DNA of 64,000 nucleotides from Candidatus Omnitrophota bacterium (GCA_018819285.1 JAHJQM010000029.1:280-64279); one strand, 5' to 3'; positions 19,014 through 50,153 are shown, numbered from the stretch's first letter. Notes: a model not told the origin generated them from the sequence alone. A program made the numbers and translations.

Positions 19014-19048
19014 AAGTTGACACTCTGACAATGTTAGAGTGTCAACTT
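19014..19048. repeat. REP-A copy 3 (aagttgacactctgacaatgttagagtgtcaactt); contains the RAYT stop codon
   Basis: The RAYT ORF ends ...CCA AGT TGA, with TGA being rc of tca at 19042-19044 inside the palindrome arm. Confidence 0.85.
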
Positions 19049-19938
19049 GGCGTATAGCTAGACTGAAGCTTATAAATGGCCTGACGGGTCAAATTTAACT
19101 TTTCTGCAATTTCAGAAACATGAAAACCTCTTGATTTTAACTGTTCTATCAAAAACATTCTTGCCTTAATCTCTTGAGGATTAGTAAGTCTTCCTTTTTT
19201 CCTTAATTGCTCTATCCGCTTTTCAATATCGTAATCGTCTGGAAGATTGCGCTCTATGCGCCATTCTTTATTTTTTTCTCTCAACATCCTTGCCATCGCA
19301 TCCAGGGCATCAGGTTTTTCAAATACATTACTTATCCTGCCGACATTAAATCCTTTTAACAGATTTCTATATTTCATCTTGGCGCGACATATATCATTAT
19401 CCAATATTTCAAGAATAAATTTATAATCCACAAACGTCTCCTTTTCTGCATCGTCTAAAAATAATGCGCACGAAGACCATCTGTAATCAACAGGATTATT
19501 AGCCAATTCTGCTTTTGCAGGATTTACATGTATATACAATGATGATGCTAAAAGATAACTATCATCAAAACACAATGCCGATCTATATGCTCCGCAAAAT
19601 ACGTGCCCTTTTCTCTGGTATTTTTTATTGAAATATACAGCATATCGTTGCAACAGCTTTTTCATTATATCCGACATATTTGATCCAAGAAACTTTAATA
19701 GTAAATGAAGATGATTTGACATAAGCACAAAACTTAATACATTACACTTAAACTTACAGAGAACTTCTTTTATCAAATGAAGCATATAAAGATAATCTGC
19801 GTCTTCTAAAAATAGGGGCTCTGTTCCTGATGCATGCTGAGTAATATGACTTATAGCGCCTTCAAAACAATATTTATTTCTAGCCCTGAAGTAACGCTTC
19901 ACCTCCCCCCGCTCTATCAATTCAATTATATCTGCCAC
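19042..19938 (-). CDS. IS200/IS605-like Y1 HuH transposase, REP-associated tyrosine transposase (RAYT)-like, with a C-terminal ~120-aa HTH-containing extension
   Basis: LFLEDADYLYMLHLIKEVLCKFKCNVLSFVLMSNHLHLLLKF is the HuH motif NHLHLLL. ...LQRYAVYFNKKYQRKGHVFCGAYRSALCFDDSYLLASSLYIHVNPAKAELANNPVDYRWSSCALF matches the Y1_Tnp fold, with a catalytic Tyr candidate in RYAVYFNKKY. The C-terminal GFHVSEIAEKLNLTRQAIYKL is HTH-like. Likely start is GTG at 19938 after AGGAGG (rc of 19945-19950). The track start at 19962 is a TTG inside REP-A copy 4. Flanked by REP-A copies 3, 4 and 5. Confidence 0.8.
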   Translation of the reverse strand: MADIIELIERGEVKRYFRARNKYCFEGAISHITQHASGTEPLFLEDADYLYMLHLIKEVLCKFKCNVLSFVLMSNHLHLLLKFLGSNMSDIMKKLLQRYAVYFNKKYQRKGHVFCGAYRSALCFDDSYLLASSLYIHVNPAKAELANNPVDYRWSSCALFLDDAEKETFVDYKFILEILDNDICRAKMKYRNLLKGFNVGRISNVFEKPDALDAMARMLREKNKEWRIERNLPDDYDIEKRIEQLRKKGRLTNPQEIKARMFLIEQLKSRGFHVSEIAEKLNLTRQAIYKLQSSYTPS

Positions 19939-19960
19939 AATACACCTCCTCTGGTTAAAC

Positions 19961-19995
19961 AAGTTGACAAACTAACATTGTAAGAGTGTCAACTT
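19961..19995. repeat. REP-A copy 4 (aagttgacaaactaacattgtaagagtgtcaactt)
   Basis: Upstream of the RAYT start. Confidence 0.85.
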
Positions 19996-20077
19996 ATCTG
20001 GGTTTCTATCATATATGACACATTTGGAAACCGTTTTCTTTCAATTTTTTTAAAGTTTTTAATTACATAGCTTGCAT

Positions 20078-20112
20078 AAGTTGACAAACTAACATTGTAA
20101 GAGTGTCAACTT
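20078..20112. repeat. REP-A copy 5, identical to copy 4
   Basis: Ends 8 nt after the thrC stop (20120-20122). Confidence 0.85.
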
Positions 20113-20119
20113 ACAGAGA

Positions 20120-21172
20120 TTAGAGAGAGATTTGAGATAAGACTGATTGGAGATTTGCGGGAACGACTTTGGGTTCTTTGATGGATTTTATGGCGCGGTC
20201 AGGGTCTTTGAGGCCATGGCCGGTAAGGATGCAGACGAGTTTTGGATTCTTGAAGTTTTTGAAATAACCTTTTTTGGCAAGCTTCATTACACCTGCTACT
20301 GAAGCGGCTGACGCGGGTTCTACAAATACGCCTTCTTTTGACGCGAGAAATTTATACGCTTCCAGTATTTCATCGTCGGAAACCATATCTATGAGACCTT
20401 TGGATTCATCTCTGGCAACTTCGGCCATTTTCCAGCTGGCAGGGTTTCCTATGCGGATAGCGGTAGCAATGGTCTCAGGTTTTTCTATAATCTTGCCTCT
20501 CACTATAGGGGCTGCGCCTTCTGCCTGAAAACCAAGCATTACAGGGAGATTCTTTATCTTCTTTTTTTCTTTATATTCTTTATAGCCTTTCCAGTAGGCA
20601 GTGATATTGCCTGCGTTTCCCACTGGGATAGCGTGAAAATCAGGCGCTGAACCAAGCTGGTCGCATATCTCAAATGAACCTGTTTTCTGGCCTTCTATTC
20701 TGTAAGGATTTATAGAATTTACAAGCTGGATATGTTGCTTGGCAGTGATTTCTTTTACAAGATTAAGCGCGTCATCAAAATTTCCATCAACTGCAATAAC
20801 CTGGGCTCCATGTATAAGCGCCTGGGCAAGCTTACCAAGCGCTATAGCGCCTTTTGGAATTAAAACAATACATTTAATCCCGGCTTTTGCCGAATATGCC
20901 GCCGCTGAGGCAGAGGTATTACCGGTAGAAGCGCACATAACCGCGACATGCTTTTCTTCCAATGCCTTTGAAATAGCAAGAGTCATGCCTCTATCTTTAA
21001 AAGAACCGGTTGGGTTAAGGCCTTCGTATTTTAAATACACTTCGCCAGTGATTAATTTTGAAAGATGGGAAGAATATATAAGAGGGGTATTACCTTCATT
21101 AAGAGTAATTATAGGCGTAGATTCATTAACTGGCAAAAAATCCTTGTATTTATCTACAATACCATTCCACAT
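20120..21172 (-). CDS. thrC: threonine synthase
   Basis: PLP-lysine motif GSFKDRGMT. 350 aa. Adjacent to homoserine dehydrogenase. Confidence 0.85.
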
Positions 21173-21176
21173 AAAA

Positions 21177-29119: not shown

Positions 29120-29154
29120 AAGTTGACACTCTAACATTGTCATGTTGTCAACTT
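29120..29154. repeat. REP-A copy 6 (aagttgacactctaacattgtcatgttgtcaactt; inner part diverged)
   Basis: The proC stop TGA (29140-29142) lies in the centre of the element. Confidence 0.8.
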
Positions 29155-29907
29155 GCTGGAGCGGTGGGCTGCGTGCTTAACCGCCTTTTTTAAGATTGCT
29201 TCTAATTTTTCCTGCTTAAACACCTTCAGGGCGGCTTCGGTGGTGCCGCCTTTGGAGGCAACCTTTTTTACCAGATCTTCTATGGGTAAATTTTTGGATT
29301 TAATAACCTCTGCTGCTCCGATAAATGTAGCCTTGGCTAATTTTAAGGCAAGGTCTTTTTTAAAACCTTGCGCCTCAGCTGCTTTGGCCAATAAATACGT
29401 GAATAAGAAATAATACGCAGGGCCTGAGCCGCTTACAGCAGTAACAGCGTCCATCATCTTCTCTTTAACCTCTACAATCTCGCCAAGATTTGAAAAAATC
29501 CTGTCCGCTATTTTAAAATCTTCTGCTTTAGCGAATCTACCGCGGCTTATGGCAGAAATGCCTTTTCCGACCATGGCAGGCATATTGGGCATAACCCTGA
29601 TTACCTTTATTCTGCCCAAAACCTTTTCTATAAAGAGCGTGGTTACGCCCGCAGCTATGGAAATAATAAGCTTTTCTTTTGCGTAAGGCTTTATGTCTTC
29701 TAAAACGCCTCTTATATCCTGCGGCTTTACAGCCAGGATGATAATATTTGACTGCCTGGCTAAATCAATATTATTACGAGCTATAGAAATATTTTTATAT
29801 TTAATGTTGCGTAATTTAGATATATCCGAGTCGCTAACGAGCACCTTCTCTTTAATGCCTAACGCTATTATCATTCCCATATTGCCTGCGCCGATAATGC
29901 TGATCAT
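29140..29907 (-). CDS. proC: pyrroline-5-carboxylate reductase
   Basis: MISIIGAGNMG Rossmann motif and P5CR C-terminal domain. Confidence 0.85.
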   Translation of the reverse strand: MISIIGAGNMGMIIALGIKEKVLVSDSDISKLRNIKYKNISIARNNIDLARQSNIIILAVKPQDIRGVLEDIKPYAKEKLIISIAAGVTTLFIEKVLGRIKVIRVMPNMPAMVGKGISAISRGRFAKAEDFKIADRIFSNLGEIVEVKEKMMDAVTAVSGSGPAYYFLFTYLLAKAAEAQGFKKDLALKLAKATFIGAAEVIKSKNLPIEDLVKKVASKGGTTEAALKVFKQEKLEAILKKAVKHAAHRSSKLTT

Positions 29908-36154: not shown

Positions 36155-36165
36155 AAAACCCTCCT

Positions 36166-36200: not shown

Positions 36201-36202
36201 AG

Positions 36203-37297: not shown

Positions 37298-38558
37298 TTA
37301 TAAGTTCCTTGAAAATTTTGCCGCGCTCTTCGTAACTTTTGAACATATCAAAGCTGGAGCACCCGGGAGAAAGTAAAACCCTGCCTCCTTTTTTAGCCCT
37401 TTTGAACCCTTTAGATACAGCCTGACTGAAGGAGTCTGCTTCAAATATAGGTTTTACTCCGCCTAAGCCTTTTTTAATCTGAAGTCTGGCCTCGCCTATT
37501 GAAATTATATAATCCACCTTTTTTTCGACTAGAGGCTTTAATAAACCGAAGTCGCCTCCTTTATATCTTCCGCCTATGATAAGGATAATATTTTTTTCCA
37601 GAGACTCTAGCGCCCATCCCACGCTTGAAACAGTCGTGGCCTTTGAATCATTTATAAACTCAACGCCATTTATATTGGCAACATGTTCCAATCTGTGTTC
37701 TATGCCTTTAAAATTCCTAATCACTTCCAGCATTTTATTTTCATCTACGCCCATAATGGAAGCTGCTGACATAGCTGCAAGAAAATCTTCATTCAATATG
37801 CTGTGTCTTTGGCCAAAATCTTTATATTCATTAAAAAATTCAACCTGCGGCCCTTTTACCGCGGCCGCAATTTCCCTTAAATATTCGTCATTTTTATTTA
37901 AAAAAAGTACGTCTTTTGTATCCTGATTTAGAAAAATCCTGCATTTGGCAGAGATATACTCATGCATATCCTTATGCCTGTCCAGATGATTGTCAGAAAT
38001 ATTCAACATTATACTTACCTTTGGTTTGAATTTATCGATAAGTTCCAGCTGGAAAGAACTCACTTCCAGAACCACTATAGAATCTTTTTTTATCCGATTT
38101 ATCTCTCCGGAGAAAGGGTTGCCGATATTGCCGCATACGATTGCGTCAAGCCCTGAGCTTTTAAGCATCTGGCCTATAAGGGTTGCAGTGGTGGTTTTGC
38201 CGCTAGTGCCTGTTACGGCAATTATAGACGTAGACGCGGGGCACATTGTATAGGCTAATTCCAATTCGGTTATTACAGGAATTTTCTTCGCTTCAGCTAA
38301 TTTAATGGGCAGGCTATCGCGTCGAACCCCAGGGCTTACTACCATGTAGTCTGATTTTTTTATAAATTTATCCGAATGAGCGCCCAGTTCTATATTTTCC
38401 GGCTTAATTACGCCTTCCTTAATCAATAAATCTCTGGATTTTTTTGCAGCTTTGTCATTTTTAAGCTCTGTGATAAAGACAGTATTTTTGCGGTTTGCAA
38501 GAAGCCGAGCTGCCTCAATCCCGCTCTTTGCCAGACCAACTATCACCACTTTTGCCAT
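37275..38558 (-). CDS. murD: UDP-N-acetylmuramoylalanine--D-glutamate ligase
   Basis: Mur ligase P-loop GTSGKTTTA. Confidence 0.9.
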   Translation of the reverse strand: MAKVVIVGLAKSGIEAARLLANRKNTVFITELKNDKAAKKSRDLLIKEGVIKPENIELGAHSDKFIKKSDYMVVSPGVRRDSLPIKLAEAKKIPVITELELAYTMCPASTSIIAVTGTSGKTTTATLIGQMLKSSGLDAIVCGNIGNPFSGEINRIKKDSIVVLEVSSFQLELIDKFKPKVSIMLNISDNHLDRHKDMHEYISAKCRIFLNQDTKDVLFLNKNDEYLREIAAAVKGPQVEFFNEYKDFGQRHSILNEDFLAAMSAASIMGVDENKMLEVIRNFKGIEHRLEHVANINGVEFINDSKATTVSSVGWALESLEKNIILIIGGRYKGGDFGLLKPLVEKKVDYIISIGEARLQIKKGLGGVKPIFEADSFSQAVSKGFKRAKKGGRVLLSPGCSSFDMFKSYEERGKIFKELINEIRKSK

Positions 38559-38577
38559 ACTTCATCTTCTCCTTAAG

Positions 38578-38616
38578 CAACTTTACACAAGCGGCATTGT
38601 CGGTTGTGTAAAGTTG
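38578..38616. repeat. REP-A variant (caactttacacaaGCGGCATTGTCGGttgtgtaaagttg; 13-bp perfect arms)
   Basis: Arms AACTTTACAC versus AAGTTGACAC of the main family share the ACAATGT/ACATTGT core. Ends 8 nt after the mraY stop. Confidence 0.75.
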
Positions 38617-38623
38617 TTACATA

Positions 38624-39724
38624 TTAACGCAACTTTAATGTAGAAAAACTGAGCAAAACTAATATTATTGCGATTATCCAGAATCTTACTGTGACCTTTG
38701 ACTCAGGCCAGCCGCACATTTCAAAATGATGATGTATGGGCGCTATTTTAAATATCCTTTTTCCGGTTGTCCTGAAAGAAATCATCTGTAATAGCACTGA
38801 CAATGCCTCTACCACAAATATCCCGCCTACTAAGAATAACAACATCTCCTTTTTTATAAAAACAGCTACTGTGCCTATTGCGCCTCCGAGCGCCAGGGCG
38901 CCTGTATCGCCCATAAATATCGTAGCAGGGTATGAGTTATACCATAAAAATCCAAGGCCAGCGCCTATTATTGACGCGCAGAAAACAGTCAGTTCCGCTG
39001 CTTCAGGAAGATAATAGATGCCAAGATACTCAGCAAACTTCACATGGCCTGTTACATAACTCATGCCTGTATAAGTGACTGCTGTCATTATTATTGTTCC
39101 TATTGCAAGGCCGTCCAGGCCGTCTGTGATATTCACAGCATTTGAACATGCGGTAATCACAAGTATTACAAAAGGTATATAAAAAATCCCCAGATCTATT
39201 ACAATATTTTTGAAAAATGGAAATTCAAGCGCCCTGGTATTGTCAGGATTCCAATATAAAAACAACGCTACCATAAGCCCTATGAGAACCTGAAAAAAAA
39301 GTTTTGTCCTTTTATTAAGGCCACGTTTACCTGACTTTGTTTTTTTGTATACTAACTTTCTATAGTCATCTATAAAGCCTAAAATGCCCATATAAAGCGT
39401 AACAAAAAGCGCAAGAAGCAAATAAGAATTGTCCAATTTAGCCCATAGCAAAGTAGACGCAAATATGCCTATTAAAACCAATATGCCGCCCATTGTAGGC
39501 GTACCTTGCTTATTCTTATGCTTTTCGTAGAGGTTAGGGCATTCCTCATGCCTTACGTTTTCGCCTATCTTTAGAGCCGCCAGTTTCCTTATTATAGGCG
39601 GCGCAAAAATAACTGTTATTAAAAATGCGGTGATGCTGGCAAACGCTGCCCTGAAAGTGATATACTTAAAAACATTAAAGATCGTAAAATATTCTCTGAG
39701 CGGATAAAGCAAGTAATATAGCAT
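38624..39724 (-). CDS. mraY: phospho-N-acetylmuramoyl-pentapeptide transferase
   Basis: MraY family with the conserved PTMGG/DDxxD region. Confidence 0.9.
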   Translation of the reverse strand: MLYYLLYPLREYFTIFNVFKYITFRAAFASITAFLITVIFAPPIIRKLAALKIGENVRHEECPNLYEKHKNKQGTPTMGGILVLIGIFASTLLWAKLDNSYLLLALFVTLYMGILGFIDDYRKLVYKKTKSGKRGLNKRTKLFFQVLIGLMVALFLYWNPDNTRALEFPFFKNIVIDLGIFYIPFVILVITACSNAVNITDGLDGLAIGTIIMTAVTYTGMSYVTGHVKFAEYLGIYYLPEAAELTVFCASIIGAGLGFLWYNSYPATIFMGDTGALALGGAIGTVAVFIKKEMLLFLVGGIFVVEALSVLLQMISFRTTGKRIFKIAPIHHHFEMCGWPESKVTVRFWIIAIILVLLSFSTLKLR

Positions 39725-39749
39725 TTATTTTCCCTTTCCGTACCTACGT

Positions 39750-39784
39750 AAGTTGACACTCTAACAATGTCACAGTGTCAACTT
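39750..39784. repeat. REP-A copy 8 (aagttgacactctaacaatgtcacagtgtcaactt); contains the murF stop
   Basis: murF ends ...ATA AGT TGA with TGA at 39778-39780 inside the arm. Confidence 0.85.
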
Positions 39785-41157
39785 ATCTTAAATTGAGATT
39801 CTAGATCGCCTACGATTTCTTCCATTCTCATCGCACGGGAGCCTTTTACGAGAATTGTATCGCCTTTTTTAATCAGGGTGGCGACTTTTTCCCGGGCATC
39901 TTTCATAACTGCGCAGAGTTTTATTTTCCTATTGCTCATGCCTGCTTCCTGCGCGCCTTTTCCGACATGCTCCGCAAGTTTTCCAACAGCTACTATAAGG
40001 TCTATCCCTGATTCTGCCGCTTGTTTACCAACCAGATGATGAAACCTGCTTGAAAATGTGCCGAGTTCAAGCATGTCGCCTGCTATGAGTATTTTTCTGC
40101 CCTCTGTGGTCATATCCCTCAATGCCTCTATTGCCTGTTTCATTGACTGAGGATTGGCGTTATAGGTGTCGTTTATTATTTTTATATCTCCGAATCTCTT
40201 GACCTCCATCCTCATATTAGGCACTCTGAATTCTTTTAAAGCATCTTTTATCTCATCTATAGATATGCCAAAATCCCAGGCGCAGGCTATAGCGCTAAGG
40301 GCGTTATAAACATTATGCCTGCCAAGCACACCGAGCGATATGTCCCATTTTCCATTTAGCCTGAAATTTATACCATCAGGCTCCAGGTTTATCTTATCAG
40401 CATAAAAATCAGCCTCTTTATCAAAACCGAACCAGACGGTCTTGAGATTTGTTTTTATTTTTTTGAGGTATTCATCATCGGCATTTAAAATAAGTTTTGC
40501 ATCCTTATCCATATGTTCCAGTATTTCCACTTTTGCCTTAAGGACAGTATCTACGTCTTCCAAGTATTCCAGGTGCGAATGCCCTATATTTGTAATAATA
40601 GCTACTGTGGGCCTGGCTATTTCTGAAAGCCATCTTATCTCGCCCAAATGATTCATGCCCATCTCTAGAACCGCTATATTGTGCTCGCTATTTAAGCGCA
40701 TCAAAGTAAGCGGTACGCCTATATTATTATTCTCTGTGCCGAAATTTTTTAAAGCATTAAATTTTTTGCTCAGTATGACTGCTGTCATTTCTTTGGTGGT
40801 GGTTTTGCCATTTGAGCCAGTAATGCCTATTATAGGTATGGTAAATCTAGACCTGTGGAAATTTCCAATATTTCCAAGCGCCTTTACGCTGTCATTGACC
40901 GAGATAAAGGAAACATCCGGCAATTTAAAATTTGCATTTGTAATGCCACCTTCCTGGACCAAGACGCCTCCAGCGCCTTTAGAAACAGCGTCCAAGATAA
41001 AACTATGGCCGTCAAACCTATCGCCTTTTATAGCCAGGAAAAGTTCGCCTTTTTTTATCTTGCGCGTATCAGTGGATACGCCTGTCAGTATCTCTTCCAT
41101 ATTCCCTGACAAAAGCTTTCCTTTTACTGCAGTTAAGACATCTCTGACTGTAAACAT
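39778..41157 (-). CDS. murF: UDP-MurNAc-tripeptide--D-Ala-D-Ala ligase
   Basis: P-loop GITGSNGKTTTKE. Confidence 0.85.
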   Translation of the reverse strand: MFTVRDVLTAVKGKLLSGNMEEILTGVSTDTRKIKKGELFLAIKGDRFDGHSFILDAVSKGAGGVLVQEGGITNANFKLPDVSFISVNDSVKALGNIGNFHRSRFTIPIIGITGSNGKTTTKEMTAVILSKKFNALKNFGTENNNIGVPLTLMRLNSEHNIAVLEMGMNHLGEIRWLSEIARPTVAIITNIGHSHLEYLEDVDTVLKAKVEILEHMDKDAKLILNADDEYLKKIKTNLKTVWFGFDKEADFYADKINLEPDGINFRLNGKWDISLGVLGRHNVYNALSAIACAWDFGISIDEIKDALKEFRVPNMRMEVKRFGDIKIINDTYNANPQSMKQAIEALRDMTTEGRKILIAGDMLELGTFSSRFHHLVGKQAAESGIDLIVAVGKLAEHVGKGAQEAGMSNRKIKLCAVMKDAREKVATLIKKGDTILVKGSRAMRMEEIVGDLESQFKIS

Positions 41158-42635
41158 AGCCCCGCCTCCTTTAAAATCCTTTTTACAACCTCCCTATCGT
41201 CAAAGGGAATAGTAGTGTCCTTGAATATCTGGTATGTCTCATGGCCTTTGCCGGCAATTAACACTATATCGCCTTCATGGGCCTCAACCAAGGCCTTTTT
41301 AATAGCGTTAAATCTGTCCGGCTCGATTGCATAATTATCTTTTTGAGGGCTTATGCCCTTAATAATCTCGTTTATTATATCTATCGGCTCTTCGGTCCTG
41401 GGATTATCGCTTGTAATAAAAACAATGTCTGAAAGTTCTGTTGAAATCTTTCCCATGGCCGGCCTTTTAGTTCTGTCGCGATTTCCCCCGCAGCCGAATA
41501 CTGAAATAAGCCTGCGCGGTTTTAATTCCCTCAGGGATTCAAGCACATTGGTAAACCCGTCTTCTGTATGAGCATAATCAACGTAAACTGAAAAATTTTG
41601 GCCGCAGCCAACGCTTTCGAGCCTTCCAGGAAGGCTTTTTAGCGCTTCAACGCCAATCTTTATATCTTTTAAATCCATTCCAATAGCAAGGCTGGCGCCA
41701 ATACTGGCTAGGATATTATAGATATTATGGCGGCCGATTAAATTTGATTTAATTTCAATTGTGCCTTTAGGGCTATAAAGCTTGAATTCTAAACCGTTAC
41801 AGGAAAGTCGCAAGTCTCTGGCTGTAATATCTGCTTCGCGGTCGATGCTGTATGTAATTATAGCTGCCTTGCTTTCAGATTTAACCTTCTCTATAATTTT
41901 TTCTGAAGCAGGGTCGTCTATGTTTACTATTGCAAAGCCGCCTTTTTTTATTTTCTCGAATAATTTAAGCTTTGCGTTCAAATAATCATCCATATTTTTG
42001 TGAAAATCCAGATGTTCTCTGGTAAGATTTGTAAATATAGCCACGTCAAATTGCAATGTCTCCACCCTTCTCTGTTCCAAAGAATGCGAGGAGATTTCCA
42101 TTATACAATAATTTAACTTTTCTTTTTGCATGTTTGATAAAAGAGAGTAAAGCTCTAATGCCCCTGGCGTAGTATTTATGCTGGGGATGGAGCGCTGGCC
42201 AAATCTATAATTCACAGTGCCTATTACTCCCACGCCCTCATTCCTGGACTTAAGTATGCTTTCCATGAGATATGTAATCGTGGTTTTGCCATTAGTGCCG
42301 GTAACGCCTATAAGGCTCATTTTACTAGAGATATCGCCAAAATAAGCCTGAGAAGCCTGAGCAAGGCCGTACTTGGCGTCTTCCACATATATAAAGGTAT
42401 TGCCTCTTTTAAATATACCTGCGCTATCATCATCTAATAAAATCGCATTAGCGCCTCTATCTATTGCCTCATCAATAAAATCCGCGCCATTTACTCTTGA
42501 TCCTTTTAAGGCAATAAACATATAGCCAGGTTTAACTGCCTTTGAATCGCAGGCAATACCTGTTATTTCCAGGTTTGTTTTGCCATCAACCTTCACTGTT
42601 CCGCTTAAATTATCTATTATTTTTTTTAATTTCAT
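41133..42635 (-). CDS. murE: UDP-MurNAc-L-Ala-D-Glu--2,6-diaminopimelate (or L-Lys) ligase
   Basis: P-loop GVTGTNGKTT and MurE family. Confidence 0.9.
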   Translation of the reverse strand: MKLKKIIDNLSGTVKVDGKTNLEITGIACDSKAVKPGYMFIALKGSRVNGADFIDEAIDRGANAILLDDDSAGIFKRGNTFIYVEDAKYGLAQASQAYFGDISSKMSLIGVTGTNGKTTITYLMESILKSRNEGVGVIGTVNYRFGQRSIPSINTTPGALELYSLLSNMQKEKLNYCIMEISSHSLEQRRVETLQFDVAIFTNLTREHLDFHKNMDDYLNAKLKLFEKIKKGGFAIVNIDDPASEKIIEKVKSESKAAIITYSIDREADITARDLRLSCNGLEFKLYSPKGTIEIKSNLIGRHNIYNILASIGASLAIGMDLKDIKIGVEALKSLPGRLESVGCGQNFSVYVDYAHTEDGFTNVLESLRELKPRRLISVFGCGGNRDRTKRPAMGKISTELSDIVFITSDNPRTEEPIDIINEIIKGISPQKDNYAIEPDRFNAIKKALVEAHEGDIVLIAGKGHETYQIFKDTTIPFDDREVVKRILKEAGLCLQSEMS

Positions 42636-42651
42636 ATATACCTATCTTAAC

Positions 42652-42688
42652 AACTTGACACTTTTGACATTGTCAGAAGTGTCAACTT
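42652..42688. repeat. REP-A copy 9 (aacttgacacttttgacattgtcagaagtgtcaactt); contains the ftsI stop
   Basis: ftsI ends ...GCA AGT TGA with TGA at 42682-42684. The inner sequence is close to copy 2. Confidence 0.85.
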
Positions 42689-44400
42689 GCTGGCTTTTTA
42701 TTATTTTTCTCTGCCACTTTTTTGTCTTTTGGCCAGATCTTGTAGTAGCTCATGAGCTCTGCGGCTACTTTTTTAAATACAGGCGCACAGACTACTCCTC
42801 CATAGTAAATCGGCCGCGGCTCGTCCATTATTACAACTATAACAAACTTTGGATTATCGGACGGCACAAAGCCTATAAATGAGGCTGTAAATTTGCTATG
42901 CGAATAAGTGCCGTTAGACTCTACTTTTTGGGCTGTGCCTGTTTTACCTGCAGGAAAATATCCTTCAACCTCTGCAAGTTTTGCTGTGCCGCTATCGACA
43001 ACGCTTCTTAATATAGTTCTCATTTCTCTGGCAGTTTCTTCTGAAATCACCCTCTGGGGTTTCTTTGGCTCAAATTTCTGTATAACATTACCTGTGCAGT
43101 CCTGTATCATATCAACTATTCTTGGCTTTACGAGATTGCCTCCGTTTGCAAGGGTTGACATTGCGCAGGCAAGCTGAAGAGCTGTTACGGTCACTTCCTG
43201 GCCCATTGAAATACTGCAGAGAGAAAGTTTTGACCAGGTATTGGGATGAGTAGTGATGCCATTTACTTCTCCTGGAAGTTCGATGCCTGTCTTTTCTCCA
43301 AATCCAAACTTCTTTATATATTTATACAGCCTGTCTTTTCCGAGCCGCTGGGCTGCTTTCATTGTGCCGATATTAGAAGAATATTTGATCACATCTCTAA
43401 ATTCCAGCCAGCCATGAGGTTTATGATCATGATATTTATGGCCGCACCATTTATATTCGCCGTTCTCGCAGAAAAACTTGTCGCTGGGCTGAACTGCCTT
43501 TTCTTCAAGGAGGCTGGAGGCTGTTATTATTTTAAAACTTGAGCCAGGTTCAAAAAAATCGCATATGGCTCTATTTCTTCTAGAGTCAGGGGGTTCAGCC
43601 TTGGCATTATTCGGGTCAAAATTAGGCCTATTGCTAAGCGCAAGTATATCTCCTGTGAAAGGGTCCATTACAATGATACACGCGCCCTTGGCGTGATATT
43701 TTTTAAAACCATTTTCCAGTTCGCGTTCTGCAAACGACTGGATTAAACTGTCTATGGTGAGTACAAGATTATCTCCGTCAATCGGCTGTATTTCCTTATA
43801 TTCATACCCAGGGACTTCGCGTTGCTTGGCGTCTCTTATCGCATATCTATAGCCTATAACGCCTTTTAAATATTTATCGAATTTCAGTTCCAGGCCTTCA
43901 AGGCCGTTATTATCTATGTCTGTAAAACCAAGGATATGGCTTGCGATTACACCATTAGGATAGGCCCTATGGGGCTCTTTGATAAAATCTATACCTTTAA
44001 TATTAAGGGCGCGGATAACCCTAGCAGTATCCTGGGAAACCTTACGGCCCAACCAAACAAAACCTCTTTTCTGGTTGAGTTTCTTATATATCTCATCCTG
44101 GCTTAGACCAAGGATAGACGCAAGTTTCTGGCTGTCTATGCCTTTATCTTTTACCTTGAAAGGTTCGGCAAATATTGAAACCAGATTTATGTTTATAGCG
44201 AGTTCTTTTAGGTTACGGTCGTAAATTACGCCGCGTTTAGGGAGAAGCGGCACCAAAAGCCTATATTGATTTGAAGCAATATTTGACAGGGATCTTGCTG
44301 CGCCTAGCTGTACAAAAACTAGCCTGACACATAGAAGCACGAACGCTATGATTAAAGTATATAGGACTTTCCTTATACGGGAAGGGGTTCCTTTGTACAC
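42682..44400 (-). CDS. ftsI: penicillin-binding protein (FtsI-type transpeptidase)
   Basis: N-terminal TM helix, SSFK (SxxK), SSN and KTGTA motifs. Confidence 0.85.
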   Translation of the reverse strand: MYKGTPSRIRKVLYTLIIAFVLLCVRLVFVQLGAARSLSNIASNQYRLLVPLLPKRGVIYDRNLKELAININLVSIFAEPFKVKDKGIDSQKLASILGLSQDEIYKKLNQKRGFVWLGRKVSQDTARVIRALNIKGIDFIKEPHRAYPNGVIASHILGFTDIDNNGLEGLELKFDKYLKGVIGYRYAIRDAKQREVPGYEYKEIQPIDGDNLVLTIDSLIQSFAERELENGFKKYHAKGACIIVMDPFTGDILALSNRPNFDPNNAKAEPPDSRRNRAICDFFEPGSSFKIITASSLLEEKAVQPSDKFFCENGEYKWCGHKYHDHKPHGWLEFRDVIKYSSNIGTMKAAQRLGKDRLYKYIKKFGFGEKTGIELPGEVNGITTHPNTWSKLSLCSISMGQEVTVTALQLACAMSTLANGGNLVKPRIVDMIQDCTGNVIQKFEPKKPQRVISEETAREMRTILRSVVDSGTAKLAEVEGYFPAGKTGTAQKVESNGTYSHSKFTASFIGFVPSDNPKFVIVVIMDEPRPIYYGGVVCAPVFKKVAAELMSYYKIWPKDKKVAEKNNKKPAS

Positions 44401-44416
44401 AATTCTTACCTATTTT

Positions 44417-44779
44417 TTAACGGCCGCTCACAAACAGATTGGCTAAAGGGCTTTTCTTTGCTAAATTTTTATAATTTAAAACAAGCTTTTTGGGGGAATG
44501 ATCAATCTTCACCACCTGCCATTTGGAAGGCATGGATAACTCTACTTCCTTGGCTAAGAGTCTTCTCTCAAGAGCGACAGGTGACCTCAAATTTAAAACA
44601 TTATATACCAGAATTTTGTTGTGGTCAACCAACTTTGCATATACATCATTATTTTGTTTCACTTTCAGGCCCATTTGATATATCAAGGCCTGCTGATTCA
44701 CATACATAACTGCTACAAAAGTCACCATCAAGATAGTTGCGAGAATTTTAGGGCAGTAATTGTTGGGGTTTTTATTCAT
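44417..44779 (-). CDS. ftsL: FtsL-like small bitopic division protein
   Basis: 120 aa with one TM helix ILATILMVTFVAVMYV. Located between rsmH and ftsI. Confidence 0.5.
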   Translation of the reverse strand: MNKNPNNYCPKILATILMVTFVAVMYVNQQALIYQMGLKVKQNNDVYAKLVDHNKILVYNVLNLRSPVALERRLLAKEVELSMPSKWQVVKIDHSPKKLVLNYKNLAKKSPLANLFVSGR

Positions 44780-44782
44780 TTT

Positions 44783-45679
44783 TTACAGCCTTTCTCCGAC
44801 TCGAAGCTTGGCGCTTCTGGAACGCGGATTCGCAATCACTTCGTTTTCATCCGCCACAATAGGTTTTTTGGTAAGGATATTAAAAATGCCTTCGGCCTTA
44901 AACTTTTTGAAAGTATGCTTTGCGATTCTGTCTTCCAAAGAATGAAATGATATAACGCAAGCCCTGGCGCCTTTTTCAAGGGCCTCTGGTAATTCCATCA
45001 AGGCCTCGCTTATTGAATCTAATTCATCGTTAGTCTTTATGCGAAGGGCTTGGAACGTCCTGGTAGCAGGGTGAATCTTGTATTTATTGTTAACGTAAGG
45101 AAGGCTGCGTAAAATTACTTCAGTCAACTCAGCTGTTGTAGAGATTTCTTTTTTCCTTCTTTCTTCAACAATACGCCTGGCTATCCTTCCATGAAACCTC
45201 TCTTCCCCTAAATCTTTTATAATAATAGAGAGTTCCCTTTCGCTCAGGCCATTCACCAGGTCCTTTGCAGTAAGGCGCTGGTTGCGGTCCATGCGCATAT
45301 CTAAAGGGCCGTCCATTTTTATGCTGAATCCTCTTTGCCATGCCTCCATTTGGATACTAGATATGCCCATATCAAATATAATCCCATTGGCTTTACTGAC
45401 TCCTATGTCTTTAAGTATTTCTTTTAGATACTTAAAATTTTTGTTTATCAATTTAAATGACCCCTCGAAAGGCCTCAGTCTTTCAGATGCCAGTCTCAAT
45501 GTTTCTTCATCCCTATCGATCCCTATCAGCATGCCGCCAGGTGTGATTTTATGAAGGATTTGCTCGCTATGCCCTGCGCCACCTATCGTAGCATCTACTA
45601 TTATCTCGCCCGGCGCAGGATTTAAAAAACTAATTACCTCTCTCGCCAATACTGGATTATGCAAATAGCTTTTTTCCAT
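44783..45679 (-). CDS. rsmH: 16S rRNA (cytosine1402-N4)-methyltransferase
   Basis: VDATIGGAGHS and DIGVSS are MraW motifs. Confidence 0.9.
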   Translation of the reverse strand: MEKSYLHNPVLAREVISFLNPAPGEIIVDATIGGAGHSEQILHKITPGGMLIGIDRDEETLRLASERLRPFEGSFKLINKNFKYLKEILKDIGVSKANGIIFDMGISSIQMEAWQRGFSIKMDGPLDMRMDRNQRLTAKDLVNGLSERELSIIIKDLGEERFHGRIARRIVEERRKKEISTTAELTEVILRSLPYVNNKYKIHPATRTFQALRIKTNDELDSISEALMELPEALEKGARACVISFHSLEDRIAKHTFKKFKAEGIFNILTKKPIVADENEVIANPRSRSAKLRVGERL

Positions 45680-45866
45680 TATTGCTTTTCAGTATCTTAT
45701 AAATCTCCTCACTAGCCGCAAGACACTTTGGGTCAATATTCAAAGACCGGGTTCTGCGTATACATTCAACAGGAATATCAAAAAAATTTGTTTCACAAAC
45801 TTTACATTTTACAACTACTCTGGAATTATGATTGCGTAACATAAGACCTCCTTTGCTATTCCTCAA
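45657..45866 (-). CDS. possible small Cys-rich (CxxC...C...C) protein between mraZ and rsmH
   Basis: 69-aa ORF with KCKVCETNFFDIPVECIRR...C. It fills the 176-nt mraZ-rsmH gap and overlaps both neighbours slightly. May be spurious. Confidence 0.25.
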   Translation of the reverse strand: MRNSKGGLMLRNHNSRVVVKCKVCETNFFDIPVECIRRTRSLNIDPKCLAASEEIYKILKSNNGKKLFA

Positions 45867-46293
45867 TAAGTTTTTCAGCTACATCTTCGAACGTATCTTT
45901 GGACTTGGAATAATATTCTTCCCAAAGTTCATGGCTCCATATTTCGATACGGTTTGATACGCCGATAATATACACCTCCTTCTTTATTTCTGCGTAATCT
46001 TTCAAGTACGACGGAATAAGTATCCTGCCCTGTTTATCAGGAACCATTTCCGAGGCGCCTGAAAAATAAAGCCTGTTGAATTTTCTGGATTCTCGTTTCG
46101 TAAATGACATTGATTTAAATTTCTGCTCCTGGACCTTCCATTCATCCTCAGCAAACATAAAAAGGCATTTATCCAAGCCGCGGGTAATAAAAAAGCGCTC
46201 GACATAATGCTCCTTGAGCGCGTCCCTGAATTTAGCGGGAATGATAATGCGTTGTTTTCTGTCCAGCGTATGCTTGAATTCTCCGTAAAACAT
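45856..46293 (-). CDS. mraZ: transcriptional regulator MraZ
   Basis: Tandem MraZ/SpoVT-AbrB-like halves and first position in the dcw cluster. Confidence 0.85.
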   Translation of the reverse strand: MFYGEFKHTLDRKQRIIIPAKFRDALKEHYVERFFITRGLDKCLFMFAEDEWKVQEQKFKSMSFTKRESRKFNRLYFSGASEMVPDKQGRILIPSYLKDYAEIKKEVYIIGVSNRIEIWSHELWEEYYSKSKDTFEDVAEKLIEE

Positions 46294-46301
46294 ATGTTAC
46301 T

Positions 46302-46328
46302 CCACTTTACTCCACTTTGTACCACTTT
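46302..46328 (-). promoter_or_regulatory. MraZ operator: three direct AAAGTGG repeats at 10-bp periodicity
   Basis: Plus strand reads ccacttt at 46302-08, 46312-18 and 46322-28. On the minus strand this is AAAGTGGtacAAAGTGGagtAAAGTGGagtaacatATG. It matches the reported MraZ-box consensus AAAGTG[G/T] x3, and the last box overlaps the GGAG SD. Confidence 0.7.
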
Positions 46329-46336
46329 GTAATCAA

Positions 46337-46365
46337 AGTTTACCCTAACAGAGTTTTTATGTCAA
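46337..46365 (-). promoter_or_regulatory. candidate dcw promoter Pmra (TTGACA-17-TAAACT)
   Basis: Minus strand reads TTGACAtaaaaactctgttagggTAAACT, immediately upstream of the MraZ boxes. Confidence 0.5.
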
Positions 46366-46438
46366 GTAAAAATTCTAACTTTTTTGGGATAATACTATAT
46401 ACGGGATATATTGTTATTTATAGACACTAAATATAGTG

Positions 46439-46477
46439 CAACTTTACACAACCGACAATGTCACTTGTGTAAAGTTG
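46439..46477. repeat. REP-A variant (caactttacacaaCCGACAATGTCACttgtgtaaagttg), inverted orientation relative to copy 38578-38616
   Basis: Same arms as the 38578 copy, with the inner 13-mer being its reverse complement plus 2 mismatches. Ends 2 nt after the ribF stop. Confidence 0.75.
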
Positions 46478-46478
46478 T

Positions 46479-47345
46479 TTAGAGGGCGCGTAGAATGTCT
46501 TGTTGGATTTGACGCTTGAGGGCTTCGAGGGATTTGAATTTCTTTTCGTCTCTTATCTTTTTCTTAAATATAACTTCTATATCTCTTCCGTAGATATCTT
46601 TATTAAAATTAAATATATGGGCTTCTATTATTTTGTGGGCGCTTATATTTAATATACCGCCGTAGAGCTTCCCATCCCTATCCAACGCTACGTCAACGCT
46701 ATAAACGCCACTCGAAGGAATGGATTCATGGTGCGGGTCAATATTCGCCGTAGGAAAACCTATTTTTCTGCCGAGCCTTTTACCTTTTACAACAGTGCCT
46801 AAAATTGTTACCGGACGGCCTAATAATTTTGAAGCAAGCAACAGGTCCCCTCTTTCAATCGCTTTTCTGATTCTTGTGCTGGAGACATAGTCTCCTTCTA
46901 TTTTTATAGGCGTGATGCTGCATAATTTAAAATTGTAAAGCTTGCTTAATCTTTTTAACAGCCTTACATCGCCTTTTTCTTTGAAGCCGAATAAAAAGTT
47001 CTCGCCTGTTACAAGCGCTTTGAGATTTAATTTATCTATCAGGATATTCTTTATGAAACCTTCCGGGCTGAGCTTTGAAAAACTTTTCGTAAATCTCTCG
47101 ACAAAAAAATAATCTACGCCCATTTTTTTTATTAATCTGCCTCTATGTTCCAGAGACATTAAAAGCGGGATTTCGGCGCTAGGATTAAGGACGTTTACAG
47201 GATGCGGATTAAACGTAATGACTACGCTTTTGAGGCGCGATCTTTTTGCCTCTTCCAAGACCTTTTTCAAGATCACCTGATGGCCTTTATGGACGCCGTC
47301 AAATATGCCTATCGTAACTGCTGTAGGATATGATATCTTTTTCAT
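46479..47345 (-). CDS. ribF: bifunctional riboflavin kinase / FMN adenylyltransferase
   Basis: IGIFDGVHKGH in the FAD synthetase domain and a riboflavin kinase C-terminal half. Confidence 0.85.
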   Translation of the reverse strand: MKKISYPTAVTIGIFDGVHKGHQVILKKVLEEAKRSRLKSVVITFNPHPVNVLNPSAEIPLLMSLEHRGRLIKKMGVDYFFVERFTKSFSKLSPEGFIKNILIDKLNLKALVTGENFLFGFKEKGDVRLLKRLSKLYNFKLCSITPIKIEGDYVSSTRIRKAIERGDLLLASKLLGRPVTILGTVVKGKRLGRKIGFPTANIDPHHESIPSSGVYSVDVALDRDGKLYGGILNISAHKIIEAHIFNFNKDIYGRDIEVIFKKKIRDEKKFKSLEALKRQIQQDILRAL

Positions 47346-48024
47346 TTACCTCATCCAGGGTCTTTGAATCTTCTAATAAAAAATCTCCTGACGCGCTTCT
47401 TACCAGGCTTGACATGTGGCTCGGAACTCCCAGCGATTTACCAATATCTTCGCATAAGGTTCTCACGTAAGTGCCTTTGGAACACCTAACTCTAAAGGTC
47501 ATTTCCGGAAAATTAAAATCAAGTATTTCAATATCGCTGATTTTTATTTTGCGTGAGCTTCTTTCTACTGTCTTGCCAGACCTTGCAAGCTGATAAAGTT
47601 TTTTGCCTTTATATTTTATTGCGGATACCATTGGAGGGATCTGCTCTATTTCTCCTTTAAAATTATCAAGCGCTTTTTTTATAGCCTCTATATCCAGGCT
47701 CTCGATCTTTGTCTCTTCAATAACTTTGCCTTGACTATCCTGCGTATCGGTCTTTTTCCCAAAAAAGACTTTTGCGACATAAACTTTGTCATCGCTCGTG
47801 AATGTATTTGATAATTTTGTGGCTTTTCCCAGGAGCATCACAAGGACTCCTGTCGCCATCGGATCCAGGGTGCCTGCATGGCCAACGCGTTTTATATCGA
47901 ATTTCCGCCTGATAAAATCTACCACATCGTGGGAGGTAATGCCTGAGGGCTTATTGACTATCAAAATTCCATCCAGTTGCATTGCTCGCCTCTGAATTTT
48001 GCAGATTGCAAAAATAATCTGCAA
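47299..48024 (-). CDS. truB: tRNA pseudouridine(55) synthase
   Basis: GHAGTLDPMATGVL catalytic Asp motif. Confidence 0.85.
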   Translation of the reverse strand: MQIIFAICKIQRRAMQLDGILIVNKPSGITSHDVVDFIRRKFDIKRVGHAGTLDPMATGVLVMLLGKATKLSNTFTSDDKVYVAKVFFGKKTDTQDSQGKVIEETKIESLDIEAIKKALDNFKGEIEQIPPMVSAIKYKGKKLYQLARSGKTVERSSRKIKISDIEILDFNFPEMTFRVRCSKGTYVRTLCEDIGKSLGVPSHMSSLVRSASGDFLLEDSKTLDEVNEKDIISYSSYDRHI

Positions 48025-48030
48025 AATTGG

Positions 48031-49011
48031 TTAATGAATACACGATTTATCGTTAACCGCTTCTTTTGCTTTTTCCAGGACTTTTTTTTCTACATCTTCT
48101 ATTTTACCGAATACAGTGCAGCCGCTTGCGGTAGGATGGCCTCCGCCGCCAAATAACCCTGCGAGTTTATTTACATCCACTTTGCCTTTAGAGCGAAAAC
48201 TCGCCTTTACCCTGTCTTCAGTGCCGGTTTCTCTAAATAGAATCGCTATCTCTACTCCGTCTATCGACCGTGCAAAGTTTATGATGCCTTCCGTGCCTTC
48301 CAGAGACGCCTTTGTCTTTTTTAACATCTCTTTTGTAACCCATAGCCATGCGATTTTTCCATCCTCTGTAAGCTTCATTGTCTGAAGGGCTTCTCCCAGA
48401 AGATTTGTATCCTGCACGCTGCTTGTTTCGTAAATCTTAGTATGCATCTCGTACGGCTGGACGCCTATATCTATCAATTCTGCGACTACCCTGTGGGTCT
48501 TTGAAGATGTGTTAGAATACCTGAAAGATCCCGTATCAGTCATAATCGCGGCGTATAAAGCGATTGCATCGTCCAAATCTATCTTCACCTTAAACGCCTT
48601 GAATAAATCGTAAACCATTTCTCCCGCGCTTGAAAATTCCGGCTCTACCCAGTTGAATTTTCCGAAATTTATATTTGAGATGTGGTGGTCGATATTTATT
48701 ATTACCGCATCTTTTTTGATATATTCACTGACTCGCCCTATCCTGGCCAAGTCCGGAGAATCCAGGATAATAATCGCCTGATAATCAAAATCATGCGGCA
48801 TTTCTTTTGATATTTTCTCAGTGCCTTTTATAAATTGCAGCAGGCTAGGCACAGGACTGTCATCCAACATCACAGCAACCTTCCCTAATTTCCTAAGTAA
48901 AAATACCATTGCCACCTGGCTGCCTATTGCGTCAGCCTCTGGATTTATATGGCTTGTTATAAGAAATTTATTAAACTTCTTTATCGCCGCTTTGACTCTC
49001 CTTATGCTCAT
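48031..49011 (-). CDS. nrnA: DHH/DHHA1 phosphoesterase (NrnA-like bifunctional oligoribonuclease/pAp phosphatase)
   Basis: DHH motif NIDHHISN with a GGGH DHHA1-like C-terminal domain. Confidence 0.75.
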   Translation of the reverse strand: MSIRRVKAAIKKFNKFLITSHINPEADAIGSQVAMVFLLRKLGKVAVMLDDSPVPSLLQFIKGTEKISKEMPHDFDYQAIIILDSPDLARIGRVSEYIKKDAVIINIDHHISNINFGKFNWVEPEFSSAGEMVYDLFKAFKVKIDLDDAIALYAAIMTDTGSFRYSNTSSKTHRVVAELIDIGVQPYEMHTKIYETSSVQDTNLLGEALQTMKLTEDGKIAWLWVTKEMLKKTKASLEGTEGIINFARSIDGVEIAILFRETGTEDRVKASFRSKGKVDVNKLAGLFGGGGHPTASGCTVFGKIEDVEKKVLEKAKEAVNDKSCIH

Positions 49012-49345
49012 TTTTTATCCTTTCGAAGGTCTTTTCCAGGTTTATGCTATATTCTATTGAATTGTCCAATGTAAAATGAAGTTCTGGCACATACCTAAGA
49101 TTTATTCTTTCTGCGATGAGTTTTCTTATAAAGCCTTTGGCGCTTGTTATGCCTTTCAAGCCCTCTTTTTTAACCAAATCATCGCCCATGATGCTGAAAT
49201 AAATCCTAGCATACCTCAGGTCGCCAGTAAGCTCAATTCTAGTGATAGTTACAAAACCTATGCGCGGATCCTTCAGATCTTCCTGTAATATTTTTGAGAT
49301 TTCTTTTTTTAACTGGCCTTCCACTCTTTTTGATCGTATTCCCAT
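48971..49345 (-). CDS. rbfA: 30S ribosome-binding factor A
   Basis: RbfA KH-like fold: RIGFVTITRIELTGDLRYARIYFSIMG. Confidence 0.8.
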   Translation of the reverse strand: MGIRSKRVEGQLKKEISKILQEDLKDPRIGFVTITRIELTGDLRYARIYFSIMGDDLVKKEGLKGITSAKGFIRKLIAERINLRYVPELHFTLDNSIEYSINLEKTFERIKNEHKESQSGDKEV

Positions 49346-49361
49346 TTCCGCTCCTTATTTC

Positions 49362-50081
49362 TTATTCAAGACCAGGCCTTGGTCGCAAATTACTGTGCTC
49401 AAGACCTGGTCTTGAGCATACTAGTTTGCTGAATGTTTCCAAACATTTCTTAGGGTTTTTCTCTTTTAGGAATAGCTCTATCTCTTTTCTAATCCTGCCT
49501 ACATTCACTTCGCCTAGAAATCCACCTAGCACCGCTTCTTTCATGAGTTTTTTTGTGTGCGGCTCTATTTTAAAACCAAACCTCACTGAAAACCTCACAG
49601 CCCTGAAAATCCTGGTCGGGTCATCCATAAAACTTTTATCATGCAATACTCTTATCACGCCCTTTGTTAAATCTTTTTGGCCGCCGTAGAAATCCACTAA
49701 TCTGCCAAAGCCTTTTTTACCTATGGCCAAAGCCATTGCATTTATTGTAAAATCCCTTCTGAAGAGATCATCCTTTATCTTGCCAGGCTTTACAGTAGGA
49801 TACGCTGCCGGATATTTGTAAGTCTCTTTGCGCGCCGTAACAATATCTATTCTTTTCCCTTTAAGCTCTATGGTTGCTGTGCCAAACGCCTTGTATGTTA
49901 TTAATCTGCCCTTTAATTTTTTATTCAAAACTTCTGCAAACTTAATCCCATCCCCTTCTACTACAAAATCCAGGTCATAATTAGACATACCTAGCAGCTT
50001 ATCCCTCACAGGCCCGCCTACAATATACGCCTTTATCTTTAATCTATCCGCAATTTTTCCGACAATTTGCGTGACATCCAT
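49362..50081 (-). CDS. cca: CCA-adding / poly(A) polymerase head-domain protein, apparently truncated (239 aa); last 19 codons encoded by a REP-C palindrome
   Basis: YIVGGPVRDKLLG...DLDFVVEGD head motif and RRDFTINAMA neck motif are present, but the body and tail domains are absent. The C-terminus ...LVCSRPGLEHSNLRPRPGLE* is the translation of the palindrome at 49395-49418. Confidence 0.7.
   Translation of the reverse strand: MDVTQIVGKIADRLKIKAYIVGGPVRDKLLGMSNYDLDFVVEGDGIKFAEVLNKKLKGRLITYKAFGTATIELKGKRIDIVTARKETYKYPAAYPTVKPGKIKDDLFRRDFTINAMALAIGKKGFGRLVDFYGGQKDLTKGVIRVLHDKSFMDDPTRIFRAVRFSVRFGFKIEPHTKKLMKEAVLGGFLGEVNVGRIRKEIELFLKEKNPKKCLETFSKLVCSRPGLEHSNLRPRPGLE
49395..49418. repeat. REP-C palindrome copy 1 (gtgctcaagacctggtcttgagca), preceded by a half-copy tcaagaccagg at 49366-49376
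   Basis: 12-bp arms. Translated as part of the cca ORF. Confidence 0.75.
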
Positions 50082-50118
50082 AATTCACAATCTCTCAATT
50101 TTTTCAAACCTATCATAT

Positions 50119-50153
50119 AAGTTGACAAACTAACAATGTCAGTTTGTCAACTT
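50119..50153. repeat. REP-A copy 10 (aagttgacaaactaacaatgtcagtttgtcaactt); contains the stop of glycosyltransferase gene 50147..51283
   Basis: The gene ends ...GCA AGT TGA with TGA at 50147-50149. Confidence 0.85.

Follow-up and report, generated by a model that had tools for sequence, protein, structure and literature searches.

In the 64,000-nt stretch of a Candidatus Omnitrophota bacterium analysed here (the window), the minus strand carries nearly all genes, and short palindromes at gene junctions supply stop codons and last residues to several of them. One palindrome family, called family A, is present in ten copies. Four genes, including the cell-wall genes murF and ftsI, stop at the TGA within an arm of a family-A copy. 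Stop supply by palindromes was confirmed as real and recurrent in the Omnitrophota lineage. With a probability of about 0.75, we consider that these elements are palindromes of the repetitive extragenic palindrome (REP) type, which belong to an Omnitrophota system of REPs and a REP-associated tyrosine transposase (RAYT) and supply the stop and the last residues in a compact genome. Stop supply by REPs is already described in other bacteria, and Omnitrophota is a new example of it, not a new kind of mechanism.

Stop codons within the palindromes

The 9-mer AAGTTGACA is matched 18 times in the window, against 0.46 matches expected from shuffles (the highest shuffle gave 3). The 18 matches pair into the ten family-A palindromes, which are 35-37 nt long with a single unpaired base at the centre. 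The consensus is (T)AAGTTGACACTCTGACA-N-TGTCAGAGTGTCAACTT(A). All ten copies are located at gene junctions, as follows.

Copy 1, 9341-9375: 10 nt past the stop of a pseudouridine synthase gene (9385-10404)
Copy 2, 18497-18533: 37-nt variant, between the stop of a helix-turn-helix (HTH) gene (18543) and the next gene start (18486)
Copy 3, 19014-19048: holds the TGA of the RAYT-like gene (19042-19044, minus strand); predicted hairpin of -19 kcal/mol, z = -4.0
Copy 4, 19961-19995: on the 5' side of the RAYT-like gene; 35-mer identical to copy 5
Copy 5, 20078-20112: 8 nt past the stop of a PALP-domain, threonine-synthase-like gene (20120-21172)
Copy 6, 29120-29154: proC (29140-29907, minus strand) terminates within it
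Copy 7, 36166-36200: starts 2 nt past the ftsW stop (TAG, 36203-36205), with the ribosome-binding site (RBS) of murG directly next to it
Copy 8, 39750-39784: holds the murF stop (39778-39780, minus strand) as ATA AGT TGA; predicted hairpin of -21.8 kcal/mol
Copy 9, 42652-42688: 37-nt variant, holds the ftsI stop (42682-42684, minus strand) as GCA AGT TGA and splits ftsI from murE
Copy 10, 50119-50153: holds the stop (50147-50149, minus strand) of an MGDG-synthase/GT28 gene

The original prediction, which was made from the sequence alone, is correct apart from small coordinate details; copies 2 and 9 are 37 nt long, not 35 nt, with 18-nt arms. The copies are near-perfect palindromes and mostly singlets. 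The stem variants covary, for example in the CTCT/AGAG and AAAC/GTTT subfamilies. According to the folding prediction, the RNA hairpins of the palindromes have energies of -19 to -22 kcal/mol (z = -3.3 to -6.1). The RBS of the next gene often adjoins the 3' arm of a family-A copy.

The open reading frames (ORFs) ending at 19042, 39778, 42682 and 50147 stop at the arm TGA with AGT just before it. Both the coordinates and the AGT before the stop agree with what had been predicted. The four genes, with the last residues before the stop and the Pfam domains, are as follows.

19042-19962, minus strand: RAYT-like gene, ...TPS, Y1_Tnp
39778-41157, minus strand: murF, ...KIS, Mur_ligase_M/C
42682-44400, minus strand: ftsI, a class-B penicillin-binding protein gene within the dcw cluster, ...PAS, PBP_dimer and Transpeptidase
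50147-51283, minus strand: GT28 gene, ...QAS, MGDG_synth and Glyco_tran_28_C

The 3' end of proC reads AAG TTG ACA ACA TGA (KLTT and stop) inside copy 6. Its stop had been placed in the centre of the copy; it lies within the copy, in the 5' arm's inner part, at a distance of 3 nt from the centre. The end of cca (49362-50081, minus strand) was confirmed to be a translated palindrome of another family, called family C: the protein ends ...KLV-CSRPGLEHSNLRPRPGLE, and the 18 added codons and the stop span the palindrome at 49366-49429. TGA is the stop of 18 of the 55 window genes, five of them within family-A copies and 13 away from any copy. Recoding of TGA is rejected by this usage, and also because read-through of the TGA would go out of frame into the next gene.

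The last Pfam domain ends at residue 441 of 459 in MurF, 545 of 572 in FtsI and 253 of 255 in ProC, and the C-terminal changes all lie past the last domain. The proposal that essential gene termini are remodelled thus holds for short tails past the last Pfam domain and for nothing beyond such tails.

Filled and empty junctions in related genomes

A MurE scan of species-representative genomes gave 13 syntenic loci in Omnitrophota metagenome-assembled genomes (MAGs), with MurE identities of 54-91%. Gain and loss at the junctions were compared among the relatives with 71-91% MurE identity; loci of relatives are given here by L numbers. The ftsI/murE, GT28/cca, ftsW/murG and mraY/murD junctions are each empty in some relatives, and elsewhere they hold family A, a further family called B, or unrelated palindromes.

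The ftsI/murE junction shows empty, stop-supplying and read-through states. In the palindrome-free loci L005, L007 and L013, ftsI has a Lys-rich tail, is about 9 codons longer and stops inside the first codons of murE, so that the two genes overlap there. In the window and in the closest relative, L001, the palindrome is located just upstream of the murE start, and FtsI stops at AGT TGA. In L003 (1419-1455) and L010 (6755-6791), the palindrome is present in the same frame as in the window but with AAGTTTACA. This single uncompensated G-to-T change removes the TGA, and FtsI gains 12 palindrome codons (ASLHSDNVSLSTS...) and reads on to the ancestral stop in murE. Other palindromes, either translated or stop-containing, are found at this junction in L002, L004, L006 and L008.

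The GT28 gene of the palindrome-free L005 and L006 stops earlier (...FVKNI or ...FVRKL), where it overlaps cca by ATGA. The last residues are ...FVTARAQAS in the window and ...FIIS in L180; each of these two stops is the AGT TGA of a palindrome, with different boundaries. In L004 and L007 the gene ends in other repeats. The cca gene of L005, L006 and L007 ends ...KLV or ...KLM, 18 codons before the stop of the window gene. The native end of proC is ...RSKQL, or ...RSKQLEKRR overlapping the next RBS. The tails of ProC in relatives are NLTL, KLTT, NLTIRARHHL, KQLYTLTMSECKVV and SLHSDNVKV, which we read as palindromes translated in different frames; the tail DNA was checked for L199, L200, L201 and L202. 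The ProC of L200 contains a 39-nt palindrome in frame, against an empty site in L202.

The result for murF is different. The palindrome-free murF genes of L003, L004, L005, L010 and L013 end ...QFKTT or ...QFKTA (ACA ACT/ACC/GCC TGA), and that of the window ends ...QFKIS (ATA AGT TGA). The length and the TGA stop are identical in both groups, and only the last two residues differ. In more distant relatives, MurF ends ...QFK, ...QFKT, ...QFKV or ...QFKI. The murF site of L001 holds a family-B-like palindrome, the left arm of which is ACAACTTGA itself. Since the TGA is shared with the palindrome-free orthologues, the stop position of murF is not new, and the claim that the palindrome donated it is not supported by these five. 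The wider claim, that the elements insert at or replace gene 3' ends and become C-terminal coding sequence, is supported by ftsI, GT28, cca and proC but not by the stop position of murF.

Frequency and reading frame

Scanning metagenomes for the palindrome pattern yielded 118 loci, and the set is thus selected by the search pattern. These loci hold 149 pattern-selected copies, which with the ten of the window make 159 family-A copies. After orthologous sites were collapsed, 116 states of ORF end and palindrome were obtained for ORFs of at least 150 aa.

Stop at +4 (AGT TGA): 30 of 116 (26%)
Stop at +12 (KLT[LN] and stop): 11 of 116
Stop at -1 (T/AA): 9 of 116
Stop at -2: 2 of 116
Read-through: 2 of 116
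Stop 3-15 nt upstream of the palindrome: 37 of 116
Stop more than 15 nt upstream of the palindrome: 25 of 116

The stop is within or overlaps the element in about 45% of the non-redundant pairs, and in another 30% or so it lies within 15 nt. The +4 frame is over-represented 3:1:1 (chi-square, p ~0.001). In 165 distinct copy-strand contexts, the flanking base is T at -1 in 64% and A at +36 in 70%. Most copies read TAAGTTGACACTCTGA with the flanking T, so that each of the three frames has a stop on either strand. Among random 18-mers of similar base composition, 0.8% have stops in all three frames; this comparison is post hoc and concerns one family.

The transposase gene

The RAYT-like gene of the window is as follows.

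19042-19962, minus strand: Y1 (HUH) transposase, RAYT-like, with a C-terminal HTH; 306 aa in the longest ORF and 298 aa in the public annotation

Family-A copies are present on both sides of the gene (19014-19048 and 19961-19995), and likewise on both sides of its orthologues in L135 and L188. Whether the flanking copies are inverted can hardly be defined, each copy being a palindrome on its own. The protein matches Pfam Y1_Tnp with 38.6 bits against the cutoff of 23 bits, and it contains NHLHLL, an HUH motif, as well as YIHVNP. Its homologues number about 700; the named ones are labelled transposase, mainly of Omnitrophota with a few of Elusimicrobia. Close homologues form two classes, one of 298 aa with the end ...xS and one of 296 aa with the end ...KYV. 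The order thrC-RAYT-HTH is shared with L135 and L188, where the RAYT orthologues show 80% identity and also stop at AGT TGA in the palindrome. This synteny would fit vertical inheritance of the RAYT. The HTH gene (18543-19031, minus strand) also neighbours the RAYT gene in both loci, and for this reason it may be a partner or regulator of the RAYT.

Copies 4 and 5 are identical 35-mers located 117 nt apart beside the 5' end of the RAYT gene. Both are 'chimeric': the left arm belongs to the AAAC subtype, the right arm to the CTCT subtype. Their identity and position suggest a recent local duplication.

Comparison with known systems

REP termini provide stop codons to flanking ORFs, and REPs are translated within ORFs (Di Nocera 2013, PMC3733652); both have been described in Proteobacteria and other groups. 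REPs are often located directly downstream of the rayt stop codon (Nunvar 2010, PMC2817692). The elements found here resemble the REP/RAYT systems of these papers in several points. They are short (35-37 bp), multicopy palindromes, mostly downstream of unidirectionally transcribed genes. The Y1 transposase gene is flanked by two copies, one of them on or at its stop. Several families are present in one genome, with termini that provide stops and with occasional translated copies. They differ from the GTAG/CGTC REP superfamilies (Di Nocera 2013) in that they have no such head, and that the stop is TGA (or TAA) instead of the TAG of GTAG. Unlike known REPs, they are near-perfect palindromes and mostly singlets, and their host belongs to Omnitrophota. 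The transposase differs from known RAYTs in its size of about 300 aa, in its C-terminal HTH and in its score below the NCBIfam RAYT cutoff. The stop overlap of about 45% looks high compared with known REPs, but it comes from a set selected by the search pattern. Within the searchable library, the literature search found no paper linking Omnitrophota with REPs or RAYTs.

Rickettsia palindromic elements (RPEs) are about 100-150 bp long and are inserted internally. As summarised in PMC3733652, they insert in frame in ORFs. The palindromes described here are similar to RPEs in that they are tolerated and translated in housekeeping genes, namely in the cca tail, the FtsI tails (L002, L003, L004 and L010) and the ProC tails. 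Going by the description of RPEs, they are set apart by their length of 35-37 bp, by their restriction to C-terminal tails and junctions, and by the fact that they usually end the ORF rather than extend it. In E. coli, REPs that lie under 16 nt away from a stop codon can lower translation, according to the work cited as ref. 17 in PMC12306157. The stable hairpin right at the termination codon of the upstream gene is common to both cases. The E. coli REPs are downstream of the stop, whereas the stop is inside the stem here, and an effect on murF, ftsI and the other genes would be an analogy only. By the same analogy, the hairpin of about -20 kcal/mol could act at the RNA level, through less translation or protection of the mRNA 3' end.

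Several other classes of element were rejected. The palindromes are not intrinsic terminators: no copy is followed by a T tail or coincides with any terminator-like site found in 35000-52000, and copies are located inside the dcw operon. They are not promoters either. The arms contain TTGACA, but the -10 position is occupied by TGTCAA, and no palindrome was listed in the promoter scan. A miniature inverted-repeat transposable element (MITE) is rejected, as the whole element is one hairpin with one central base and no target-site duplication is seen between filled and empty junctions. A TA target-site duplication of the IS630/mariner type, with flanks read as 'TA...TA', is rejected too, since only 64% of copies have the outer T and only 70% the outer A. 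Rfam models at the gathering threshold gave no hit at the palindromes; the hits in the window were one c-di-GMP-I riboswitch and one tRNA.

Origin of the stop codons

In the mechanism that we prefer, the AAGTTGACAC...GTGTCAACTT repeats are the REP-type elements, two of which flank the Y1 transposase gene at 19042-19962. Copies would be mobilised by the RAYT. The genome is compact, with genes a few nt apart or overlapping, and new copies survive only in narrow slots. Such slots are the space from the ORF end to the next RBS, or a dispensable C-terminal tail. The arm TAAGTTGACACTCTGA with the flanking T presents TAA at -1, TGA at +4 (x-Ser) and TGA/TAA at +12 (Lys-Leu-Thr-Leu), and because the element is a palindrome, stops are present in every frame on both strands. 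Since the arm contains these stops, an invaded ORF, or an ORF whose overlap with the next gene is split, is closed again within 0-4 codons, with the stop and the last residues supplied by the element. Variants without the stop, or families without a stop in that frame, are translated through as 12-18 extra residues. Purifying selection would be the filter that leaves the minimally disruptive insertions.

Several points weigh against this mechanism. On the alignment, the 'donation' at murF is an overlap or replacement and gives no new stop. The rule that the shortest tail wins does not explain the +4 excess, because the -1 frame (TAA) adds even less. The best NCBIfam model for the transposase, REP_Tyr_transpos, scores 57.8 bits (E = 1e-15), below the curated cutoff of 80 bits, and a sequence search against solved RAYT structures gave nothing significant. 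A GTAG or CGTC head was sought in the flanks of the 165 copy-strand contexts and was found in none. Insertion 'precisely at' gene ends, as claimed in the original prediction, was not borne out, as the comparisons of filled and empty junctions yielded no target-site duplication, no definable exact boundary and no recent transposition event; the sole sign of recent movement is the pair of identical copies next to the RAYT gene. Against the closest relative L001, insertion boundaries could not be fixed, since the mraY/murD junction has Ns there and every other junction is occupied in L001 as well as in the window. All genomes are MAGs or metagenome contigs, in which palindromes can disturb the assembly, and L001 has Ns inside one palindrome. 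In addition, the empty murF and proC sites hold 8-11 nt identical to the family-B end AAACAACTTGA. The palindrome-free ends are AAAACAACTTGA in murF (L003, L004, L005, L010 and L013) and CCAAACAACTAGA in proC (L202, 1320-1345), and both match the left end of family B, AAACAACTTGACAC. These matches hint at deletion footprints or at a preferred target, neither of which follows from the simple model. At the 3' end of the GT28 gene in L007 (2430-2452), a lone half-site AACAACTTGACACTT is found, which matches the left end of family B as well.

A broader proposal is that family A is a bidirectional 'stop cassette' with stops in three frames (TAA, TGA and TGA/TAA in the first 15 nt), with homing or footprints at AACAACTTGA-like ends in addition. 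We put it forward tentatively and regard it as doubtful.

The palindromes may instead be primarily cis-regulatory RNA or DNA elements of the host, in which the stop in the stem is selected for function and mobility is secondary. A ribosome terminating at the TGA of the 5' arm would have to melt the hairpin, which could tune output by stalling, couple or uncouple translation, or protect the mRNA 3' end. The high share of stops on the element or at most 15 nt away, the 3:1:1 over-representation of the +4 frame, the stable hairpins with covarying stems, the RBS of the next gene adjoining the 3' arm, the E. coli precedent as cited in PMC12306157, and the RAYT stop lying within its palindrome across many relatives would all agree with such a role. 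However, the same junction in close relatives is empty, or holds another family, or holds the element at another offset or frame, so that no site-specific function is conserved. In L005, L007 and L013 the element is absent from the essential dcw junctions, and the read-through variants of L003 and L010 are tolerated. We judge a primarily regulatory origin to be unlikely.

A still less probable explanation is that the element homes to sequences like its own end (...AACTTGA or ...AAGTTGA), by a guide-target mechanism like that of IS200/IS605 or by microhomology. Native TGA stops with such a sequence would be the targets, and the stops would not be donated. The matches of 8-11 nt at the palindrome-free murF and proC sites, the unchanged stop position of murF, the lone half-site of L007 and the +4 excess are in line with homing; the empty-site matches could equally be deletion footprints. 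The empty ftsW/murG, GT28/cca and mraY/murD junctions are unlike palindrome ends, and in ftsI, GT28 and cca the stop has clearly moved compared with the empty sites. The heptamer AAGTTGA is present in every copy, even far from ORF ends, and is therefore part of the element rather than of the target. We consider native stops captured by homing very improbable.

That the shared AGT-TGA stops are an artefact of ORF calling, palindrome misassembly or TGA recoding, or arose by chance, is hardly credible. In its favour, the data come from MAGs and assembled metagenomes, a palindrome of one relative is interrupted by Ns, and the sharing of one frame by four of the five overlapping cases of the window is by itself only marginally unusual (p ~0.045, hand calculation, equal frames assumed). 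Against it, the same arrangement recurs in independent assemblies from many samples, the ORFs end at or within a few residues of the orthologue ends, and recoding is contradicted by the TGA usage and the out-of-frame read-through described above.

Other palindrome families

Palindromes of families B and C in the window are listed below. The core of family C is CTCAAGACC-N-GGTCTTGAG, and family B has the form CAACTTTACAC...GTGTAAAGTTG.

49366-49429: family C, about 1.5 copies, the last 18 codons of cca
60968-61004: second family-C palindrome, intergenic
38578-38616: family B, between the mraY stop and the murD start
46439-46477: family B, starts 1 nt past the TAA of the ORF 46479-47345
10378-10420: family-B-like, between the stop of a 2464-aa ORF (10427) and the next gene start

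Families A (AAGTTG-ACAC...GTGT-CAACTT) and B (CAACTT-TACAC...GTGTA-AAGTTG) have a common inner stem, and the outer six bases are swapped between the arms. Unrelated palindrome families are located at the same dcw junctions in L004, L007, L008 and L013 (for example, L004, 14520-14552; L008, 4885-4930). In L013 (6526-6556), a palindrome tagged GTAG...CTAC is present, and the TAG stop of ftsW lies in GTAGGGACAGG..., derived from its GTAG. In L004, a GC-rich palindrome (GGGAGCCCGACTCCC) is translated within the tails of FtsI and the GT28 protein.

Other features of the window

A giant open frame on the minus strand, 1-8139, comprises at least 2713 codons and runs off the left end of the window; it does not show in the ORF listing. 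The GC content is 41-45% over this region and about 36-38% in the next 4 kb. A reading of the first 8 kb as ORF-free, recoded or non-coding was rejected on the basis of this giant ORF. The c-di-GMP-I riboswitch (Rfam RF01051, 71 bits) is located at 8954-9042 on the minus strand, upstream of the ORF 8149-8763, after which the giant frame comes. A second giant gene (10427-17821, minus strand) encodes the 2464-aa protein, which has a CFI-box-CTERM domain. The 145-aa ORF 45856-46293 heads the dcw genes and is taken as mraZ by its position. Upstream of it, a near-consensus sigma-70-like site, TTGACA-17-TAAACT, is present at 46337-46365 (minus strand), which may be the promoter of the dcw cluster. 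Unlike this site, the palindrome arms hold TTGACA without a usable -10.

Significance

If family A is a 'stop cassette' as proposed, it could colonise the overlapping or abutting junctions of streamlined genomes without giving long aberrant tails. If it also homes to AACAACTTGA-like ends or leaves footprints there, some C-termini and stops that look native would be palindrome relics, for example the MurF end ...KTT compared with ...QFK in outgroups, and the turnover of REPs would keep feeding the evolution of C-termini and stop codons in Omnitrophota core genes.

The present results extend REP/RAYT-type elements and their supply of stops and tails to Omnitrophota, an uncultivated phylum with compact genomes. 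For annotation, the C-termini of FtsI, ProC, Cca and GT28 proteins in these MAGs vary through palindromes and not through sequencing errors. Ancestral gene overlaps, ftsI/murE and GT28/cca, are split by the element. The empty, stop-donating, read-through and other-family junctions form a natural series for asking whether a stop within the stem affects termination or coupling.

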